From an uncultured Candidatus Saccharibacteria bacterium (GTDB lineage: Bacteria > Patescibacteriota > Minisyncoccia > Phycocordibacterales > UBA9973): 64,000 nt of DNA. Of this stretch, positions 15,387 through 52,628 are shown in pieces. The notes under the pieces are model-generated. The model was not told the origin of the DNA, did no database searches, and saw only the letters and a list, made by a program, of their open reading frames with translations. A program made the position numbers and the translations under genes. Where the stretch lies: the NCBI GenBank assembly GCA_964484005.1, contig CAZADR010000001.1, positions 135,819-199,818 of the forward strand, in the 5' to 3' direction. Numbering within the stretch: position 1 is the first letter of the stretch; the number at the start of each line of letters is the position of its first letter.

Positions 15387-17615
15387 ATGAAAGAATATGA
15401 CCATTCAAAGTTAGAAAAAAAGTGGCAGACTATTTGGGAGAAAAAGGGAATCTATCACGCCAAAGACAAGTCTCCAAAACCAAAATATTTTAGTCTTATT
15501 GAATTTCCTTACCCATCCGGAGATGGGTTACATGTAGGGCATCCTAGGTCTTATGTGGGCATGGATATTGTTTCCAGAAAAAGAAGACTGGAAGGTTTTA
15601 ATGTCTTATACCCAATCGGTTGGGATGCTTTTGGTTTACCGACAGAAAATTATGCCATCAAGACTGGCAAGGATCCTAGGATTGTCACCAAGAAAAATAG
15701 TGATGTTTTTCGAAAACAGATAAAAGCACTTGGTATTTCTTTTGATTGGTCTCGAGAAATAAATACTACTGACCCAAAATATTATAAATGGACACAATGG
15801 ATATTTTTACAATTCTTGAAAAAGGGTTTGGCTTATAAAACAAAGACAGAGATAAATTGGTGTCCAAAAGACAAAATTGGATTGGCTAATGAAGAAGTGA
15901 TAGCCGGAAATTGTGAAAGATGTGGTACTCCGGTGGAGAAGAAAGAAAAAGAGCAATGGATGCTCGCCATTACTAAATATGCTGACAGGCTCGATAAAGA
16001 TTTGGATGATGTTGACTATTTGCCTCAAATCAAATTAGCCCAGAGAAACTGGATAGGAAAAAAGCATGGCGCAGTAATAAAGTTTGATGATATTGAGGTT
16101 TTCACCACTAGGCCTGACACTATTTTCGGTGCTACTTTTGTGGTTATTGCAGGGGAGAAAGATAAGTTTACTGGGCGTTATGTGACCAACCCAGCGACCA
16201 AAGAAAAGATACCTGTTTGGGAAGCAGAGTATGTCATGGCCGAAGTTGGTACGGGAGCCATAATGGCTGTGCCTGCAGACGACGAGAGAGATATGGCATT
16301 TGCCAAACAGCACGATTTGCCTATTGTTGAAAATTATAAAAAAGCTGGTTTTGAAGATTTTGGAAAGAAGGTTGTTCACTTTAAACTTCGAGATTGGGTT
16401 TTTTCTAGACAGCGATATTGGGGTGAGCCTATACCAGTAATTTTTTGTGAAAAGTGTGGAGCTGTACCAGTACCAGAAAAAGATCTACCCGTAGAGCTTC
16501 CCAAGGTAAAGAATTATCAGCCGACTGATAGCGGTGAATCTCCTCTCGCGAATATTTCAAAATGGGTAAATACAAAATGTCCCAAGTGTAAGGGAAAAGC
16601 TAAAAGAGAAACCGATACCATGCCAAACTGGGCGGGCTCTAGTTGGTATTATTTGAGATATGCTGATTCAAAAAATAAGAAAGAATTTGCAAGTAAGAAG
16701 AATTTAAAATACTGGACACCGGTGGATTGGTATAATGGGGGAAATGAGCACACAACCCTTCACCTTCTGTATTCTCGTTTTTGGCACAAGTTCCTTTTTG
16801 ACTTGGGCTTAGTTCCTACTTCTGAACCTTACAAGAAACGAACTTCCCATGGGCTTATTTTGGCTGAAGGGGGAGAGAAGATGTCTAAATCAAGAGGAAA
16901 TGTGGTAAATCCAGATGAGATAGTAAAGCTCTATGGTGCAGATACCTTGCGTGTGTATGAGATGTTTATGGGTCCATTTAGCCAAGCTGTATCTTGGTCC
17001 ACCGAAAGTATTATTGGCTCTAGAAGATTTATCGAAAAAGTTTGGAGGATAAAAGAAAAAGTTTTGAAACAGAAGAATTCTTCCGGCTTGACCCTTCCCG
17101 GAGTACCGGGTGGGACCCACACCGCTCAGAATTCTTCTGTTTCAAAACTGTTAAACAAAACTATTAAAAAAGTTTCTGAAGACATAGAAGAGATGCGTTT
17201 TAATACAGCTATTTCTTCTTTGATGATTTTGGCGACAGAGATGGAAAAAACAGAAAACATTTCTATCGAAGATTATAAAATGTTTTTGATTATTCTTTCT
17301 CCATTTGCCCCGCATGTCGCAGAAGAATTGTGGAGCATGTTTGGAGACCTGTCTGCCGACAAGGCAGGAAAGAAATCCATTAATCTTTCTTCTTGGCCAA
17401 AGTGGGATGAGGGCCTTCTTGAGGAAGATGAAATTAAAATAGTTGTTCAAATAAATGGAAAGGTAAGAGCTGAAATGATGATAAAATCTGGTGAAAATGA
17501 AGAAAAGGTAAAAGAAGATGCTTTGAAGAATGAAGATGTGTTAAAATACATTACAAGCAAGGATATTAAAAAAGTAATTTATGTGAAGGGTAGACTTATT
17601 AATATAGTTTTGTAG
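15387..17615 (+). CDS. leuS: leucine--tRNA ligase (short form)
   Basis: HIGH-region is HVGHPRSYVGMD and KMSKS is present. The editing domain and the LeuS-specific anticodon-binding region are recognisable. The protein is 742 aa. Confidence 0.95.
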   Translation: MKEYDHSKLEKKWQTIWEKKGIYHAKDKSPKPKYFSLIEFPYPSGDGLHVGHPRSYVGMDIVSRKRRLEGFNVLYPIGWDAFGLPTENYAIKTGKDPRIVTKKNSDVFRKQIKALGISFDWSREINTTDPKYYKWTQWIFLQFLKKGLAYKTKTEINWCPKDKIGLANEEVIAGNCERCGTPVEKKEKEQWMLAITKYADRLDKDLDDVDYLPQIKLAQRNWIGKKHGAVIKFDDIEVFTTRPDTIFGATFVVIAGEKDKFTGRYVTNPATKEKIPVWEAEYVMAEVGTGAIMAVPADDERDMAFAKQHDLPIVENYKKAGFEDFGKKVVHFKLRDWVFSRQRYWGEPIPVIFCEKCGAVPVPEKDLPVELPKVKNYQPTDSGESPLANISKWVNTKCPKCKGKAKRETDTMPNWAGSSWYYLRYADSKNKKEFASKKNLKYWTPVDWYNGGNEHTTLHLLYSRFWHKFLFDLGLVPTSEPYKKRTSHGLILAEGGEKMSKSRGNVVNPDEIVKLYGADTLRVYEMFMGPFSQAVSWSTESIIGSRRFIEKVWRIKEKVLKQKNSSGLTLPGVPGGTHTAQNSSVSKLLNKTIKKVSEDIEEMRFNTAISSLMILATEMEKTENISIEDYKMFLIILSPFAPHVAEELWSMFGDLSADKAGKKSINLSSWPKWDEGLLEEDEIKIVVQINGKVRAEMMIKSGENEEKVKEDALKNEDVLKYITSKDIKKVIYVKGRLINIVL

Positions 17616-39768: not shown

Positions 39769-39824
39769 ATATTTGAATATACTTAAATGTTAAAAAGTAA
39801 TAAAATTATTATAGCTTTTTATTG

Positions 39825-39896
39825 TGCGCGGTGAGGGGATTGAACCCCCGGCCCTCGTCACGTCAAGACGATGCTCTACCACTGAGCTAACCGCGC
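39825..39896 (-). tRNA. tRNA-Val (anticodon GAC), no encoded CCA
   Basis: The reverse complement is GCGCGGTTAGCTCAGTGGTAGAGCATCGTCTTGACGTGACGAGGGCCGGGGGTTCAATCCCCTCACCGCGCA. Confidence 0.85.
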
Positions 39897-40582
39897 ATAT
39901 TTTCTAATGTTTTTTCACAAAACTTCCTTCCAATATATACCAGTTTTCTTTGTATCGCAATGTTACCACAATCAATAACACAAACACCTTTATAGTCCGA
40001 GTATGTAGATATCCCTACAGTTCTTTTGTCAACAGATATAGACTTAAACCTGTGAAGTGGGGCGTTTAGTTCTTTAGCCCAATAATTTTTAATTAATTCA
40101 GGATTTTGATCAGCTCGAATGTGTAAATCAAATCTGATTTTTTCTATGTTTACTTTATATATCTCAAGCATTATTCTTAAAAAGAATTTCATTATTAAAG
40201 GGTCAGAATTTCCCATGCCTGTTTTTGGAGATTTTTTAAACCCTTCACCTAAATATAAAAGAGCAAGAGCTAATTCAATGGTTTCTTGTTTGTTGTTTAT
40301 TTTTAACAATGTTTTTTCAGCTTCATTTTCTGCTATTTTTAATCTATGTCTTTTTTGTTCGTTATGCCAAACTACAGCTATTTTTCTTGCATTGATGAGA
40401 GCTTTCTTGTGTTTGGTATCTAGTGATTTATATTGGGAGTTAGTGAGTTTTATGTTTTTAAACCAGCCACTAAGTGTTGAACGGGGAATACCCAAAAATG
40501 TCTCTATGTGTCTGATAGATTTTCCCTGTTTTCTAAAATATATTGCTTTTGATTTTAACTGGAACCATTTAGATTGCACCAC
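39887..40582 (-). CDS. HTH-domain protein with a degenerate LAGLIDADG-like motif (possible homing-endonuclease-like ORF)
   Basis: An N-terminal HTH (IRHIETFLGIPRSTLSGWFKNIK) is present. LALALLYLGEGFK resembles a LAGLIDADG block. The stop overlaps the 5' end of tRNA-Val by about 10 nt. Confidence 0.4.
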   Translation of the reverse strand: MVQSKWFQLKSKAIYFRKQGKSIRHIETFLGIPRSTLSGWFKNIKLTNSQYKSLDTKHKKALINARKIAVVWHNEQKRHRLKIAENEAEKTLLKINNKQETIELALALLYLGEGFKKSPKTGMGNSDPLIMKFFLRIMLEIYKVNIEKIRFDLHIRADQNPELIKNYWAKELNAPLHRFKSISVDKRTVGISTYSDYKGVCVIDCGNIAIQRKLVYIGRKFCEKTLENMRG

Positions 40583-41555: not shown

Positions 41556-42134
41556 ATGTCCAAGAAGTTTAAGGTTCCGACCCTCAGCGAGACCCAGGAA
41601 GAGCTCAAGTCGCTTCTCGAGCTCGCGAGCAAGTTCGAAGGTTTCAGGATTCGTCCGAACCTCAAGGACGAGTTTCAGCTCGCATCCAAGCTCCTCGAGG
41701 AGGGCAAGGACATGGAGGCAGTGAAGGCACTCCATGCTCTCATGGGTGGCATCAAGGCCACTCTCACCGGATTCTTCCGGGGATGTGGCAAGCACTTCGA
41801 CCACATGCGTGGTCAGCTCGAGGCAGAAGCCCCGTTCGAGAAAGACATCGCGAGTCGCGTCAAAAAGTCCCTCGATGAGGTGGAGGTCTACTCCAAGCTT
41901 CAGCTTGGGATGGACCTCAACAAGGCCCAAGAGCTCTACGCTTCTACGCTCGAAGTTCTCCGTTCTGCGGAGAAAGAGCAGAAGGAGAGGAGCACCATTC
42001 GCCGGCAGAGGCGAGAGGAAGAGAACCGGCTGCTGGAAGCCCAGCACGCCGAAGAGAACAAGGAGAGAGAGGCTCAGCGTCGGCAGAAGAACGCCGAAGG
42101 ACTTCGTAGTCTCGCGAATCTCATCAACATTTGA
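41556..42134 (+). CDS. hypothetical alpha-helical, charged protein (192 aa) with foreign GC3-rich codon usage
   Basis: Local GC is about 52-55% against an AT-rich background. Codons are dominated by AAG, GAG, CTC and TTC. It has its own promoter, a strong Shine-Dalgarno and a terminator. The other long ORFs over the same DNA (41532..42197 minus strand, and the 5' part of 41734..43404) are stop-free artefacts of GC3 bias. Confidence 0.6.
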   Translation: MSKKFKVPTLSETQEELKSLLELASKFEGFRIRPNLKDEFQLASKLLEEGKDMEAVKALHALMGGIKATLTGFFRGCGKHFDHMRGQLEAEAPFEKDIASRVKKSLDEVEVYSKLQLGMDLNKAQELYASTLEVLRSAEKEQKERSTIRRQRREEENRLLEAQHAEENKEREAQRRQKNAEGLRSLANLINI

Positions 42135-42157
42135 CCTGCGAATAGAACCGCAAGTCA

Positions 42158-42195
42158 AAAGCCCCGACAGAACATCGTCGGGGCTTTTTATTTTC
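42158..42195 (+). terminator. rho-independent terminator
   Basis: aaagccccgacag aacat cgtcggggcttttta tttt. Confidence 0.7.
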
Positions 42196-42255
42196 AATTT
42201 AAAAATATCTTATATAGGATATTGTAAAAAATATTTTTTGTGTTATAATATAAAA

Positions 42256-43404
42256 ATGAAGATAGCTACAAATGTAACAAGAGAATATCTTGGTGGAATA
42301 ACTAGATCTAACTTTAATTTTATTGATTCTATAAATGAAAAAGATAGAGGAATAATTGGTATCGAATTAAATGGAAGAAGGTATATGGAAGGTCCTACGA
42401 TCTTTAGACATTTTTCACCTGATTGGTTTAAACATCATATTGTAAATATTCACGATATTCCTATTCGTGAAGCTGTAAATTCGTCTAAAAATTTAAAAGA
42501 TCTGGAAAAAAAATATAGACCCATTATTAAAATAATTAAAGGAATCTTGTTAAAAGATAAGCCAGATGTTGTTTTTCTTAGTGGAACTTACTATGTCCCT
42601 TGGATTATTTCAATAGCTGCTTTTGAATTAAAAATACCGATTGTTTTAAGATATGCTGGCGTTTACTCAAAAGAAACTGAGAGTGCCAAGCCAAAAGCAA
42701 GAAAATTCTTTAATGAAATAGAAAAATCTTTTCAGAAAAGAGTTAGTCATTTTATTTTTCCATCACGACTATGTCTAGATGTGGTAGAAAAAGAAGTTTT
42801 AAAAAAACAGATTAAGAATGCTTTTATTGTTCCAAATTCCTTTAAAGTACCTGAGAATAAATCTATTTTTAATAGTGTAGAAAGGAGAATAGCCGCTGTA
42901 GGTAGATGGGATAAAATAAAAAACTTTGAAAGTTATTTTGAGATTCATAATATTTTAAAAAAAGAAGGTTGGAAGCATGAAGCTTCATTTGTTACAGGTG
43001 ATTCAAAAATAAAAAGTATTCCAAAAACAATAAATAGATTTACTTCTATGACGCACGATGAATTGTTGAAATTTTATTCATCCCAGGGGTTGATCATATG
43101 TCCATCATTATTTGAAACATTTGGTAATGTTCCAATGGAGGCAGTTTGTATGGGTATACCTGTTCTTGTTAGTGATAATATGGGGTGTGCAGAAGTTTTA
43201 CAAACAGCGGGACTTAGTAATATGGTTATGTCTTTTGAAAATTCTAAAAAAGTAGCAGAAAGGGTAAAAGAATTATGTGGTCAGCAAATACTTCCTAGGC
43301 AAATAAACAACCTAAGAAAAATATTAGACCCCAAGGCAACAAATGCTAAAATAATGTCTATTTTAAGAAATGCGATAGATAGTTCAGTTCGTGATTTGTT
43401 GTAG
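42256..43404 (+). CDS. glycosyltransferase family 4 (GT-B, group 1)
   Basis: The ATG is at 42256 (MKIATN...). The ORF-track start at 41734 is an artefact. The GT1 signature is LICPSLFETFGNVPMEAVCMGIPVLVSD. Confidence 0.8.
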   Translation: MKIATNVTREYLGGITRSNFNFIDSINEKDRGIIGIELNGRRYMEGPTIFRHFSPDWFKHHIVNIHDIPIREAVNSSKNLKDLEKKYRPIIKIIKGILLKDKPDVVFLSGTYYVPWIISIAAFELKIPIVLRYAGVYSKETESAKPKARKFFNEIEKSFQKRVSHFIFPSRLCLDVVEKEVLKKQIKNAFIVPNSFKVPENKSIFNSVERRIAAVGRWDKIKNFESYFEIHNILKKEGWKHEASFVTGDSKIKSIPKTINRFTSMTHDELLKFYSSQGLIICPSLFETFGNVPMEAVCMGIPVLVSDNMGCAEVLQTAGLSNMVMSFENSKKVAERVKELCGQQILPRQINNLRKILDPKATNAKIMSILRNAIDSSVRDLL

Positions 43405-49673: not shown

Positions 49674-51137
49674 ATGTCTTCAATTGATGAAATTAGGGAC
49701 GCTAGAATAAAGAAACTGGAACTCTTAAAGGCTAAGGGAATAAATCCGTATCCCGCAGAGTCAAAAAGAGAGCTTACTTTAAAAGAGGCAGTTCTCAATT
49801 TTGAAAACTTAGAAAAAAATAAAGAAATAAAATGGATTTCGGGTAGAATCATGTCTATTCGTGGCCAAGGTGCTATCGTCTTTATCACCTTAAATGACGG
49901 CACAGGCACCTTTCAAGGACTTTTAAAGAAAGATATTCTTGGAGATGAGAAATTTGATTTTTGGAATGAAGTAGTAGACATAGGGGACTTTGTAGAAGCA
50001 CAAGGTTCATTTTTTGTGACCAACAGAGGAGAAAAGACTCTTGAAACGAAAGATTGGCACATGCTCGGAAAAAGTCTACGTCCTTTGCCAGAAAAATGGC
50101 ATGGCTTGGTGGACATTGAAGAGAGATTTAGAAAAAGATATTTGGATATTTTAATGAATCCTGAAATTAAAGATATTTTTGAAAAGAAGGCAAAGTTTTG
50201 GGATTCAGTTCGAAATTTTTTGAAAAAAGAAAATTTTTTAGAAGTAGAGACTCCGACCATCGAAGTCACGACTGGTGGCGCCGAAGCTAGGCCATTTAAG
50301 ACTCATCACAATGATTTTGATATAGATGTATATATGCGTATCTCCGTAGGGGAACTTTGGCAAAAGAGACTTCTAGCTGCTGGCTTTTCTAGAGTCTTTG
50401 AGATAGGTAGAGTTTATAGAAATGAAGGCTCAAGTCCAGAGCATACCCAAGAGTTTACAAACTTGGAGTTTTACGCTGGCTATATGGATTATAGACAAGG
50501 CATGGATTTTACCGAGAGGATGATAAAAGAAATCATCCAAGAGACTTTTGGTAAATTAGATTTTGAAATACATGGAAACAAAATAGATTTTTCTAAAAAA
50601 TGGGAAGAAGTCCCTTATGTCGAGACTATAAAGAAAATGCTAGACATAGATGTGCTCTCTGCGACTGAAAAAGAGATGGAAAAAAAGCTAGATGAGCTCG
50701 GAGTAAAGTACGAAGGTAGCAACAAGGAGCGCTTGACTGATTCTCTTTGGAAACATTGCAGGAAGCAAATAGTGGGCCCAGCTTGGCTCGTGGATGTGCC
50801 CAAGCTTGTCTCTCCGCTTTCAAAAGTTAAGCCAGAAAATCCTCTTTTGACTGAGAGAGTACAGCTTCTCTTGGCGGGTGCCGAGATGACCAATGGCTTT
50901 TCTGAATTAAATGATCCGATAGATCAAGCCGAAAGATTTGAAGTTCAAAAGAAACTTATTGCGAAAGGGGACGAAGAAGCGATGATGCCAGATGATGAAT
51001 TTGTGGAGATGCTCGAGCATGGCATGCCTCCAGCTTTTGGTTTTGGTATGGGAGAGAGATTTTTCACTTTTTTAGTAGATAAGCCTCTGCGTGAGACTCA
51101 ACTTTTTCCATTAATGCGACCTAAAAAAACAGATTAA
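49674..51137 (+). CDS. lysS: lysine--tRNA ligase (class II)
   Basis: It has an OB anticodon-binding N-domain and class II motifs 1-3 (…FRNEGSSPEHTQEFTNLEFY…, GFGMGERF). Confidence 0.95.
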   Translation: MSSIDEIRDARIKKLELLKAKGINPYPAESKRELTLKEAVLNFENLEKNKEIKWISGRIMSIRGQGAIVFITLNDGTGTFQGLLKKDILGDEKFDFWNEVVDIGDFVEAQGSFFVTNRGEKTLETKDWHMLGKSLRPLPEKWHGLVDIEERFRKRYLDILMNPEIKDIFEKKAKFWDSVRNFLKKENFLEVETPTIEVTTGGAEARPFKTHHNDFDIDVYMRISVGELWQKRLLAAGFSRVFEIGRVYRNEGSSPEHTQEFTNLEFYAGYMDYRQGMDFTERMIKEIIQETFGKLDFEIHGNKIDFSKKWEEVPYVETIKKMLDIDVLSATEKEMEKKLDELGVKYEGSNKERLTDSLWKHCRKQIVGPAWLVDVPKLVSPLSKVKPENPLLTERVQLLLAGAEMTNGFSELNDPIDQAERFEVQKKLIAKGDEEAMMPDDEFVEMLEHGMPPAFGFGMGERFFTFLVDKPLRETQLFPLMRPKKTD

Positions 51138-51140
51138 AAA

Positions 51141-51167
51141 AATCCCAGTGTTTACTGGGATTTTTTT
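51141..51167. terminator. bidirectional rho-independent terminator
   Basis: aatcccagtg ttt actgggatttttttaat. Confidence 0.7.
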
Positions 51168-51174
51168 AATTAAT

Positions 51175-51507
51175 CTAATCTAATTTAAAACGTTTAAAAA
51201 TTATCTCTCTGTCCTTTTTATCATTACCAGTAGGCGCCCATTCTTTTTCTGGTACGCTGGTAAACGTTTGAAGTTCTAGAAAATGTTTTCTATAGAAGGA
51301 AACTATTTCTTCATCTGAAGCATCCTTTGGAAGTTTTGGACCTAAAGGAGAAACTGGTTCTTGATTTAAAACATCGATAGCCCTTCTTTTAATATCTGCT
51401 GGTAGTGTTGGTAAGTTTTCTACATCAGGAAAGACCTGTTCTTCACTTTCATCTTCTTTATGATTAAAATCACCCTTTCTTAAATTGTCCATGTTGTTAT
51501 TTTCCAT
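51175..51507 (-). CDS. hypothetical protein (110 aa)
   Basis: An ORF with host-like codon usage. No motif was recognised. Confidence 0.4.
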   Translation of the reverse strand: MENNNMDNLRKGDFNHKEDESEEQVFPDVENLPTLPADIKRRAIDVLNQEPVSPLGPKLPKDASDEEIVSFYRKHFLELQTFTSVPEKEWAPTGNDKKDREIIFKRFKLD

Positions 51508-51545
51508 AAATCTAATTATATTACCTATTTTAATAATAGCAATCT

Positions 51546-51575
51546 ATAAAAAAATAGCCCCAGCTTTCGCTGGGG
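51546..51575 (-). terminator. rho-independent terminator on the minus strand
   Basis: The minus strand reads ccccagc gaaa gctgggg ctattttttt. Confidence 0.6.
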
Positions 51576-51597
51576 CAGGGTGGGCGATAGCCCGATA

Positions 51598-51870
51598 CTA
51601 GAGATCAGAGCTGATTCTTCGCGCTTCTTCTGTGATGGGAATCAGGTGCGATGCGTCGCTCCTGAAAAACCCAATTGCAGACTCCCTTCTACCGTCTACA
51701 ATCCTTTGAAACAGGACATAGACGGTATTCGGGTCTATGGACCTTGTGAACACATCGATGATTATCGCAATGTCCATTCCGGCTTGGGTGTACTGCCCTA
51801 CTCGGATTTGGTCCATCCGAGTCAGGGTGTATTTTACTCCGTAGCTTTGATGTTCGCTTATTTTTCTCAA
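51598..51870 (-). CDS. hypothetical 90-aa protein in a GC-elevated segment (alternative reading: structured ncRNA)
   Basis: There is a TTG start 6 nt after a perfect Shine-Dalgarno AGGAGGTG. The ORF ends just before the terminator. GC is about 48% against a ~33% background. A 107-codon ORF on the + strand overlaps it. Confidence 0.4.
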   Translation of the reverse strand: MRKISEHQSYGVKYTLTRMDQIRVGQYTQAGMDIAIIIDVFTRSIDPNTVYVLFQRIVDGRRESAIGFFRSDASHLIPITEEARRISSDL

Positions 51871-51988
51871 ATTACACCTCCTAACTTTCTACTGGTAGTA
51901 TAGCATACTTGAGGCTAAAAGTCAAGGAACAAATGGGCACATTTAACTTAAGAGTTATCCACAGTTTAGAGCTGGTGCTATTTAATTG

Positions 51989-52024
51989 GTGGAATATAAT
52001 GTATACGAAGTGGGAAAAAGTGGG
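51989..52024 (+). promoter_or_regulatory. putative MraZ operator: direct GTGG(G) repeats at 10-11-bp periodicity upstream of mraZ, overlapping a TATAAT box
   Basis: GTGGAATATAATGTATACGAAGTGGGAAAAAGTGGGAAA. The repeats lie at 51989, 52010 and 52020, and tataat at 51995. Confidence 0.45.
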
Positions 52025-52187
52025 AAACCTGTTTAAAAGTAATTTGTTTAGAAAATTAATGAACAAAGTGAATATAATTTTCTTTACCCCAGTTAAGTAA
52101 TTTTTTGCTTAGCAAAAAATAAAATCTAAAAGATTTTTACTTAACAGGGTGATGATTTTCTAATCACTTTGCTCAAGAAAATCAATC

Positions 52188-52628
52188 ATGTTAATCGGCG
52201 AATACATACACACCATAGATGAAAAAAACAGAGTTTCCTTACCCGTAAAATTTCGAAAAGAGATGGGTAAGAAAATTATTATTACCCCTGGTCTCGATAA
52301 ATGTTTATTCATTTTTACCCTCAAAGAATGGGCCAAGGTTAGTAAGAGACTTTCTGATTCAGACTCCGATTTATCTTTCTTAAAAGCAGACAAGAGAAGT
52401 TTTAATAGATTTATGTTTGGCCGTGCGACGGATGTAGAAGTAGATTCTATCGGTAGGATTTTAATACCAGATTTCTTAAAAGACAGGATAGGGCTCAAAG
52501 ACAAAGCAGCCATCATCGGAGTTGAAGACAGAGTAGAAGTTTGGAATGAAAAAGCATGGTCGCAGTATAAAGATGTCGTGGAAAAGCAGGCAGATGAGTT
52601 GGCAGAAAAGCTTGGAAACGAAAAATAA
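52188..52628 (+). CDS. mraZ: transcriptional regulator MraZ
   Basis: It has tandem MraZ/SpoVT-AbrB-like halves (DEKNRVSLPVKFR and DSIGRILIPDFLK). Confidence 0.9.
   Translation: MLIGEYIHTIDEKNRVSLPVKFRKEMGKKIIITPGLDKCLFIFTLKEWAKVSKRLSDSDSDLSFLKADKRSFNRFMFGRATDVEVDSIGRILIPDFLKDRIGLKDKAAIIGVEDRVEVWNEKAWSQYKDVVEKQADELAEKLGNEK

Follow-up and report, generated by a model that had tools for sequence, protein, structure and literature searches.

The gap between lysS and mraZ in a 64,000-nt stretch of contig CAZADR010000001.1 (assembly GCA_964484005.1, forward-strand positions 135,819–199,818; hereafter the window) contains on its minus strand a self-contained unit built around a 90-codon open reading frame (ORF), designated ORF90. 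This unit is probably an orphan, strain-specific small-protein gene that is headed by a Shine–Dalgarno (SD) sequence and occupies a hypervariable slot with a conserved expression layout. The coding interpretation is favoured because the promoter–SD–start layout is shared with several related genomes, where it drives small ORFs, some of them conserved as proteins. The window genome is that of a Candidatus Nomurabacteria bacterium (Paceibacterota, candidate phyla radiation, CPR).

In the mechanism that we propose, a sigma-70-type promoter (TTGACT-17-TGcTATACT) would fire divergently from mraZ, with transcription starting near 51890. Ribosomes would bind to AGGAGGUG and initiate at the UUG codon at 51870, yielding a 90-residue soluble protein without known relatives, and transcription would stop at the hairpin/U7 terminator (51576–51548), giving an RNA of about 343 nt. 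Since the layout is shared while the content differs from genome to genome, we take ORF90 for one of many small genes that are interchangeable at this position; our guess is that its product, like the other small proteins of the slot, serves an accessory function.

Anatomy of the ORF90 unit

The promoter, SD sequence, ORF and terminator of the unit follow one another in a single orientation (Table 1), with the SD at an ideal distance from the start codon, inside the 5–10 nt expected of an SD-led gene. The promoter matches the consensus at 10 of 12 positions and carries a TG dinucleotide (51905–51904) one base upstream of its -10 box. The AGGAGG core of the SD lies 6 nt from the start. Beginning 21 nt past the stop codon, the terminator stem (GCCCCAGC/GCTGGGGC) has 8 bp, seven of which are G–C pairs, and is capped by a GAAA loop and followed on its 3' side by the T-run TATTTTTTT; the tail is given in the feature listing as UAUUUUUUU. 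As no T-run follows the stem on the plus strand, this hairpin is expected to terminate transcription on the minus strand only. The predicted ORF90 product is soluble, slightly basic and beta-rich.

Table 1. Features of the ORF90 unit and its surroundings (window coordinates).
Feature	Position	Strand	Description
Sigma-70-type promoter	51925–51897	-	-35 TTGACT (51925–51920), 17-nt spacer, -10 TATACT (51902–51897)
SD sequence AGGAGGTG	51882–51875	-	Followed by 4-nt spacer TAAT, then TTG; read directly
ORF90	51870–51598	-	TTG start (51870–51868), 90 codons, TAG stop (51600–51598)
UAUC and 4-bp GC hairpin GGGC-UAUC-GCCC	51597–51582 (hairpin 51593–51582)	-	Between stop and terminator; read directly
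Intrinsic terminator GCCCCAGC-GAAA-GCTGGGGC	51576–51557 (with U-run 51576–51548)	-	Terminator scan
Antisense ORF, 107 codons	51580–51903	+	GTG start inside minus-strand terminator; codon-aligned with ORF90; ORF list
ORF110, 110 codons	51507–51175	-	Between lysS and ORF90 unit; own promoter-like site

The SD, TTG start, 90-codon frame, terminator hairpin and T-run all lie where a preliminary description of this DNA had placed them, and its remark that both strands are open also holds; the promoter is an addition to the elements that it listed. Two of its statements need to be narrowed. The segment is indeed GC-elevated (47% compared to 37% for the window; ORF90 itself 0.47, with 0.44–0.49 in 200-nt windows), but the rise is modest, as 47% is attained (in 150-nt windows) by 37 stretches of the window, almost all of which lie within genes; what is unusual is its position between annotated genes. 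Likewise, the unit does lie in the gap between lysS and the mraZ promoter, but ORF110 separates it from lysS.

Coding signals in ORF90

Chance was assessed with 20,000 dinucleotide shuffles of the 314-nt body of the unit. Only 0.4% of the shuffles contained an ORF of 90 codons or more (P=0.004), 2.7% had an antisense open frame of 104 codons or more, and no shuffle had both. Nucleotide composition differs between the three codon positions of ORF90 (chi-square 16.5, P=0.014), revealing a three-base periodicity that is of the same order as in 270-nt pieces, equal in length, of mraZ (14.1, P 0.017) and lysS (12.8, P 0.029). Both ORF length and periodicity are thus beyond chance, the two measures being partly dependent. 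Taken together, the periodicity and the improbable open length argue for coding in one of the two aligned frames, and the signals that bear on orientation all favour the minus strand.

At first codon positions, ORF90 (A.38, G.30, T.14; purine 0.68) resembles the host genes, unlike the plus-strand frame. Its GC content at the three positions is.48/.40/.54 (the GC3 is also given as 0.55), and overall GC, GC1/2/3 and first-position purine content all fall within the range of 13 small ORFs found at the same slot in relatives.

Rarity of SD sequences in the window

To put the SD of ORF90 into context, 49 ORFs of the window were taken as genes and surveyed for SD and -10 motifs. An SD-like motif precedes two of the 49 only, ORF90 and the ORF at 41556–42134, while a TATAAT-like box lies 4–12 nt before the start in 16. 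This pattern suggests that the genes of this genome are SD-less and its mRNAs widely leaderless.

The second SD-led ORF (41556–42134, plus strand; SD AAGGAG) has 192 codons, its own terminator, a GC content of 0.565 and a GC3 of 0.73 (versus 0.55 in ORF90). It encodes a charged protein, rich in Glu, Leu and Lys, that has 193-aa homologues with 59–61% identity in JGI and Logan assemblies; profile searches gave marginal matches only, to PD-Lambda-1 (E 0.0012) and tape-measure profiles. This ORF is a genuine conserved gene and ORF90 an orphan. A common origin of the two GC-rich units, raised in the preliminary description, finds no support in sequence, since they share no similarity; the 192-aa ORF is conserved and its GC3 is much higher. 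On the other hand, the strong SD that had been pointed out as a trait of both turns out to be a closer parallel than was claimed, since no other ORF of the survey has one.

Elsewhere in this part of the window, the 5' end of a tRNA-Val gene (39824–39896, minus strand) is overlapped over 10 nt by the stop of a 231-codon ORF (39887–40582, minus strand). The sole Pfam signal in the latter is a weak N-terminal helix-turn-helix (HTH_23, E 0.0045); by eye, it also contains a candidate LAGLIDADG-like stretch, LLYLGEGFK.

The lysS–mraZ gap in related genomes

The best LysS matches among species representatives are 78–87% identical to that of the window, and nearly all records are CPR metagenome bins. 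Their labels are mixed (Nomurabacteria, Paceibacterota, Saccharibacteria); about 30 bins name a candidate lineage other than Saccharibacteria, which is Nomurabacteria in all but one. Eighty loci were fetched via LysS, 62 of which have the order greA–lysS–gap–mraZ–rsmH. In these 62 the gap measures 138–2680 nt and its content is not conserved between genomes; the unit, ORF90 and the plus-strand ORF had no match in the relatives' loci.

Conservation within the gap is limited to a block of some 100 nt upstream of mraZ, where a box, CTGTGGATAAC, stands beside the mraZ promoter in 57 of the 62 loci. The corresponding block of the window has a perfect DnaA-box-like site, TTATCCACA, at 51955–51963, about 230 nt upstream of mraZ (83–200 nt in relatives), followed by a -10-like TATAAT and by two direct repeats AAGTGGGAAA, 10 nt apart (52008–52027); two GTGGGAAA repeats are located at 52010–52027. 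These GTGGG repeats are of the kind bound by MraZ in E. coli.

On the minus strand, the gaps contain two kinds of elements that often co-occur: SD-led small ORFs and SD-less GC-rich hairpin RNAs. Among relatives with the box, about one-third carry an SD-led ORF (25–200 aa) directly behind it. Gap ORFs of this type are typically 40–90 aa long (one has 201 aa), and their promoter lies about 28 nt from the box. The TTGAC of the window falls into the same alignment column as that of L011, L012, L024, L025, L036, L003 and L040, again about 28 nt from the box. In the alignment (A5) the box and TTGAC columns are invariant, and co-linearity extends to the -10, SD and start, the 5' untranslated region of the window being 7–9 nt longer. 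The window unit therefore displays the complete local layout, i.e. box, about 28 nt, TTGACT, 17 nt, -10, SD and start. In the closest relative (L011, LysS 87% identical), AGGAGGTGgtaacTTG precedes an 88-codon ORF, and the content of the gap differs from that of the window.

That such ORFs are translated is indicated by a family of eight gap proteins (from L024, L036, L037, L025, L012 and L011, with two in L052) of about 65–75 aa, which are conserved at the amino acid level with the pattern wP.k...Lgk.v.P...rPe.i.i..g..kD...L..aGF.fe and match no Pfam family or PDB sequence. Conservation of these eight ORFs as protein argues that SD-led small proteins are truly made from the lysS–mraZ gap. Other gap ORFs encode small membrane peptides or Cys-rich proteins; the membrane peptides often share an operon with the eight-member family.

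The part of the gap on the lysS side of the unit is occupied by ORF110, the product of which is acidic and matches no protein family; some gene callers place its start five codons later (105 aa). Its promoter-like sequence, TTGCTA-16-TATAAT, ends 7 nt before the ATG and is thus of the leaderless type. The gap of L006 encodes a weak relative (blastp 3e-4, 24% identity), through which ORF110 clusters with an ORF of L003. A perfect 17-bp hairpin (ATTAAAAAAATCCCAGT/ACTGGGATTTTTTTAAT, 51133–51170), flanked by A- and T-runs, overlaps the end of lysS (stop at 51135–51137) and looks like a bidirectional terminator common to lysS and ORF110.

Hairpin RNAs in the gaps of relatives

The second kind of gap element consists of GC-rich, SD-less RNAs of 100–170 nt on the minus strand, for example at L004:5462–5801 and L008:5456–5770 and in L047, L029, L015, L009, L050, L061, L037 and L040. 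Their promoter is located 5–6 nt from the box, or else they stand behind ORFs. Each has its own TTGACTT-17-TATACT promoter and ends in a 3' module composed of a covarying hairpin, AUC-GGCG...CGCC-AAAA, and a terminator. A covariance model of this module (R1), built from 24 relatives with the window excluded, recovered 15 copies in relatives (E 0.002–0.06), each of them immediately downstream of lysS on the minus strand. Rfam searches of 16 + 7 relatives' loci produced no match to the hairpin RNAs, which look like an undescribed, lineage-specific small-RNA family.

The motif CCUCC occurs 13 times in 25 hairpin RNA bodies, compared to 4.4 expected. In L040, a perfect complementarity of 11 nt links the hairpin RNA at its 5' end (CCUCCUUUCCG) with the SD region (CGGAAAGGAGG) of the first small ORF in that gap (positions 64–74 and 529–539, counted from the box on the minus strand). 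None of 500 shuffles reached such a pairing, and nothing comparable was seen in seven other loci. In L005, the box, promoter and hairpin-RNA unit are present twice in tandem, the second copy (ctgtggacaactttctttacttttt) about 370 nt after the first, which suggests that the slot grows by unit duplication.

The 3' hairpin of the window unit (51582–51597) is similar in layout to this module, and by eye it was first taken for a copy of it. That claim was withdrawn because model R1 misses the window hairpin at E<=10.

Weighing the coding interpretation

Several observations weigh against ORF90 being a protein-coding gene, one being that no homologues were found. A word-indexed search of 5.8 billion clustered proteins returned only ORF90 itself, from a 700-nt ENA contig, and scanning 1.84 billion representatives in full with HMMER yielded a further two weak matches, to Ig-like repeat proteins (P0002 and P0003). 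In these, one and the same 30-residue stretch of ORF90 aligns to five or six copies of the repeat; they were rejected as homologues because the repeats inflate the score, no single match is significant and Pfam detects no such domain in ORF90. There was likewise no match in Pfam, PHROGs, PADLOC, NCBIfam or PDB sequences, and peptide-pattern scans of metagenome and viral contigs recovered nothing. ORF90 also stands outside the eight-member gap family (no hit at E<=10 in iterated hmmsearch; hhalign probability 0.2%) and is not similar to the first gap ORF of L011. At the DNA level, blastn and nhmmer found no relatives of the unit in the 80 syntenic loci, and the phage and plasmid collections gave no matches.

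Six other contigs carry this DNA and are 100% identical to the window over the shared part of 51100–52200. Five of them came from exact look-ups of MraZ and ORF110, and the identical set comprises L081–L086 and the window. The DNA is present in the assemblies ERZ27247820/28/30/37 and in runs ERR3094294/ERR3094302. As all copies are identical, neither dN/dS nor substitution pattern nor covariation can be read from them. On four longer identical contigs gene callers left ORF90 uncalled; it is on record only for the 700-nt contig. Further points on this side are the TTG start, which differs from the ATG of nearly all other genes of the window, a composition log-odds of about 0 compared to about +0.1 per residue in real genes here, and a pLDDT of 48 for the AlphaFold2 single-sequence model, a value too low for searching by fold.

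Another of these observations concerns RNA folding. The predicted transcript (51890–51548, about 343 nt) folds at -123.4 kcal/mol, with a z-score of -5.75 relative to shuffles, and ORF90 alone reaches -5.1 to -5.9. Helices are predicted at 51818–51787, 51726–51691 and 51683–51629. For comparison, 237 windows of 270 nt across the whole window average -0.48 (sd 1.36), and the 13 small ORFs of relatives span +0.5 to -3.6, all weaker than ORF90. The plus strand of the unit folds equally well; because both strands fold alike, folding energy favours neither. The most negative z-scores in the scan belong to minus-strand segments elsewhere, 42121–42390 (-8.6), which spans an AT-rich intergenic stretch as well as the terminator of the 192-codon ORF, and 17011–17280 (-5.6), inside a long gene.

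A role of the structure in hiding the SD was examined and rejected. Pairing of the SD with a repeated UACACCC motif is predicted (P about 0.6), but does not exceed what a shuffled coding region gives: the probability of the SD being unpaired is 0.287 as compared to 0.273 +/- 0.115, and a 6-nt complement is expected with P=0.55. Occlusion of the SD being ordinary, the excess structure of ORF90 is left without an assigned role.

Alternative explanations

The strong fold keeps a non-coding or dual-function reading alive as a minority view. In its plain form, the unit would be a stand-alone structured non-coding RNA (ncRNA) of about 340 nt, in which the presence of the ORF and of the SD-like sequence would be a coincidence or would belong to the function of the RNA itself. 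We regard this as unlikely, though more plausible than the remaining alternatives. The folding scores described above are what one would expect of such an RNA, as are the unit's own promoter and terminator, a product without homologues or a confidently predicted structure, an ORF skipped by gene callers on four contigs and the presence, in the corresponding gap of relatives, of SD-less, GC-rich RNAs that have a covarying 3' hairpin. The preliminary description, which had offered the coding and ncRNA readings side by side, is borne out in part on either count, the former by periodicity and ORF length but not by homologues, the latter by the fold but not by any Rfam match. At gathering thresholds, Rfam identified six tRNAs and nothing else in the whole window, while a permissive scan of 51400–52200 (E<=10) yielded nothing above 25 bits, all scores being far under the family thresholds. 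ARAGORN detected no tmRNA. RNase P, tmRNA, signal recognition particle (SRP) RNA, 6S RNA, riboswitches, leaders and large ornate RNAs were rejected as identities for want of an Rfam family at threshold. Moreover, a 90-codon ORF placed 6 nt after a perfect SD core and 21 nt before a terminator hairpin is improbable by chance, even on length alone, and an ncRNA gives no reason for three-base periodicity. The distance from the box to the promoter is that of the SD-led ORF units (about 28 nt) rather than that of the hairpin-RNA units (5–6 nt), the 3' hairpin fails the covariance model of the relatives' module, and the fold is equally good on both strands.

A second and rather improbable alternative is that the unit is a decaying or functionless remnant, i.e. 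recently acquired or rearranged DNA that came to lie behind a native promoter and whose ORF is intact only owing to its youth. Turnover of the slot is fast, with different content even in the closest relative, and ORF90 is an orphan with a GC3 of 0.55, as opposed to 0.2–0.37 in host genes, and with a neutral amino-acid composition. However, the promoter, SD, start, ORF and terminator form an intact and coherent whole, the DNA is fixed without difference in seven contigs (L081–L086 and the window), and the composition fits the conserved small ORFs of the same slot.

It is similarly doubtful that the unit acts mainly as an RNA, or as an RNA and mRNA at once, within a gap that would constitute an undescribed type of exchange slot. 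Such a slot would combine three features: a fixed divergent promoter beside a DnaA-box-like site and MraZ boxes that serves interchangeable SD-led mini-genes in otherwise SD-less genomes; GC-rich hairpin RNAs of a family that Rfam lacks, encoded in the same gap; and the pairing of some of these RNAs with the SDs of neighbouring small ORFs, which is convincing in L040 only. If so, the excess structure of the ORF90 RNA would be functional, for example in stability, processing or regulation.

That the unit is a cis-acting leader or riboswitch controlling ORF110 through the unit's terminator seems very improbable. There are indeed just 41 nt between the end of the terminator and the ORF110 ATG, both on one strand, and the segment is long and structured, but it matches no riboswitch or leader family, an SD and a 90-codon ORF would be needless, no alternative antiterminator pairing is apparent in the predicted folds, and ORF110 has a promoter-like site of its own between that terminator and its start, in the leaderless layout seen in 16 of the 49 ORFs.

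It is hardly credible that the plus-strand 107-codon ORF is the real gene and ORF90 its shadow, since the former, in spite of being longer, having a canonical-looking GC1 > GC3 > GC2 order (.56/.39/.46) and sharing the same periodicity statistic, has no promoter, SD or terminator in that orientation, starts at a GTG within the minus-strand terminator, found no homologues in the protein search and has an amino-acid composition log-odds of -15.5, compared to -0.8 for ORF90; we read it as a shadow frame and not as a gene.

Implications

A single orphan small gene is ordinary in itself. ORF90, read as an SD-led small-protein gene, marks a hypervariable slot with a conserved layout beside the mraZ cell-division operon of CPR bacteria. 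If the ORFs of this slot are translated, they provide a handle on how reduced genomes express and exchange accessory small proteins, and they would mean that the ribosomes of these genomes still use SD pairing when it is offered. The hairpin RNAs in the gaps of relatives, which are not in Rfam, possibly form a lineage-specific small-RNA family and are worth a separate description.

Comparison with known systems

Type I toxin mRNAs (hok, tisB, fst) derive from strain-variable, self-contained small genes and are heavily folded, and the ORF90 unit shares all three properties. A type I toxin–antitoxin system was nevertheless rejected: the 90-aa product is soluble and not hydrophobic, SD occlusion equals that of shuffled controls, and neither an antisense RNA gene nor an antisense promoter or terminator was found. 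Dual-function RNAs such as SgrS/SgrT, RNAIII/hld and SR1/SR1P act both as regulator and as mRNA; their ORF is a minor part of the molecule, which has a base-pairing region with known targets. Like them, the unit is independently transcribed in our model, highly structured and a few hundred nt long, with a small ORF preceded by an SD, but ORF90 fills about 80% of its RNA.

Two further kinds of elements were considered and rejected. TIGR arrays, the RNA-guided systems with Tas/Nop-domain proteins of CPR bacteria, consist of two alternating 8–12-nt repeats with 9-nt spacers in units of about 36 nt, usually in 5–15 copies, or alternatively of tandem stem-loops with box C/D motifs, with the Nop-domain protein encoded adjacently (PMC12045711). 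The unit contains no tandem repeat, its only internal repeat being two imperfect 21-nt copies 39 nt apart, and the adjacent ORFs have no Pfam domain. A miniature inverted-repeat or insertion sequence (IS)-type mobile element is not indicated either, as there is no second copy in the window and no match to phages or plasmids; the only flanking inverted repeat, of 14 nt (51552–51565 / 51970–51983), overlaps the terminator and the conserved block upstream of mraZ.

Closer parallels come from the same gap in relatives. The hairpin RNAs resemble the unit in being GC-rich and strongly folded, with their own sigma-70-type promoter and terminator, on the minus strand and by the same box, but they differ in their length, in the lack of an SD or long ORF, in the distance of 5–6 nt between promoter and box and in a 3' module that the unit does not match. 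The small proteins of the Nomurabacteria gaps resemble ORF90 in position, strand, promoter spacing, strong SD, length (about 60–90 aa), raised GC and codon-position composition, yet have no sequence or profile similarity to it.

Among described phenomena, the unit is comparable to the ORFan small accessory genes of variable intergenic hot spots. The lysS–mraZ slot is distinguished from these by the re-use of one conserved layout with different ORFs and by a strong SD in an otherwise SD-less genome. As in such hot spots, however, a short ORF with full expression signals, no homologues and an atypical composition is lodged between conserved core genes, where both spacing and content vary among close relatives.

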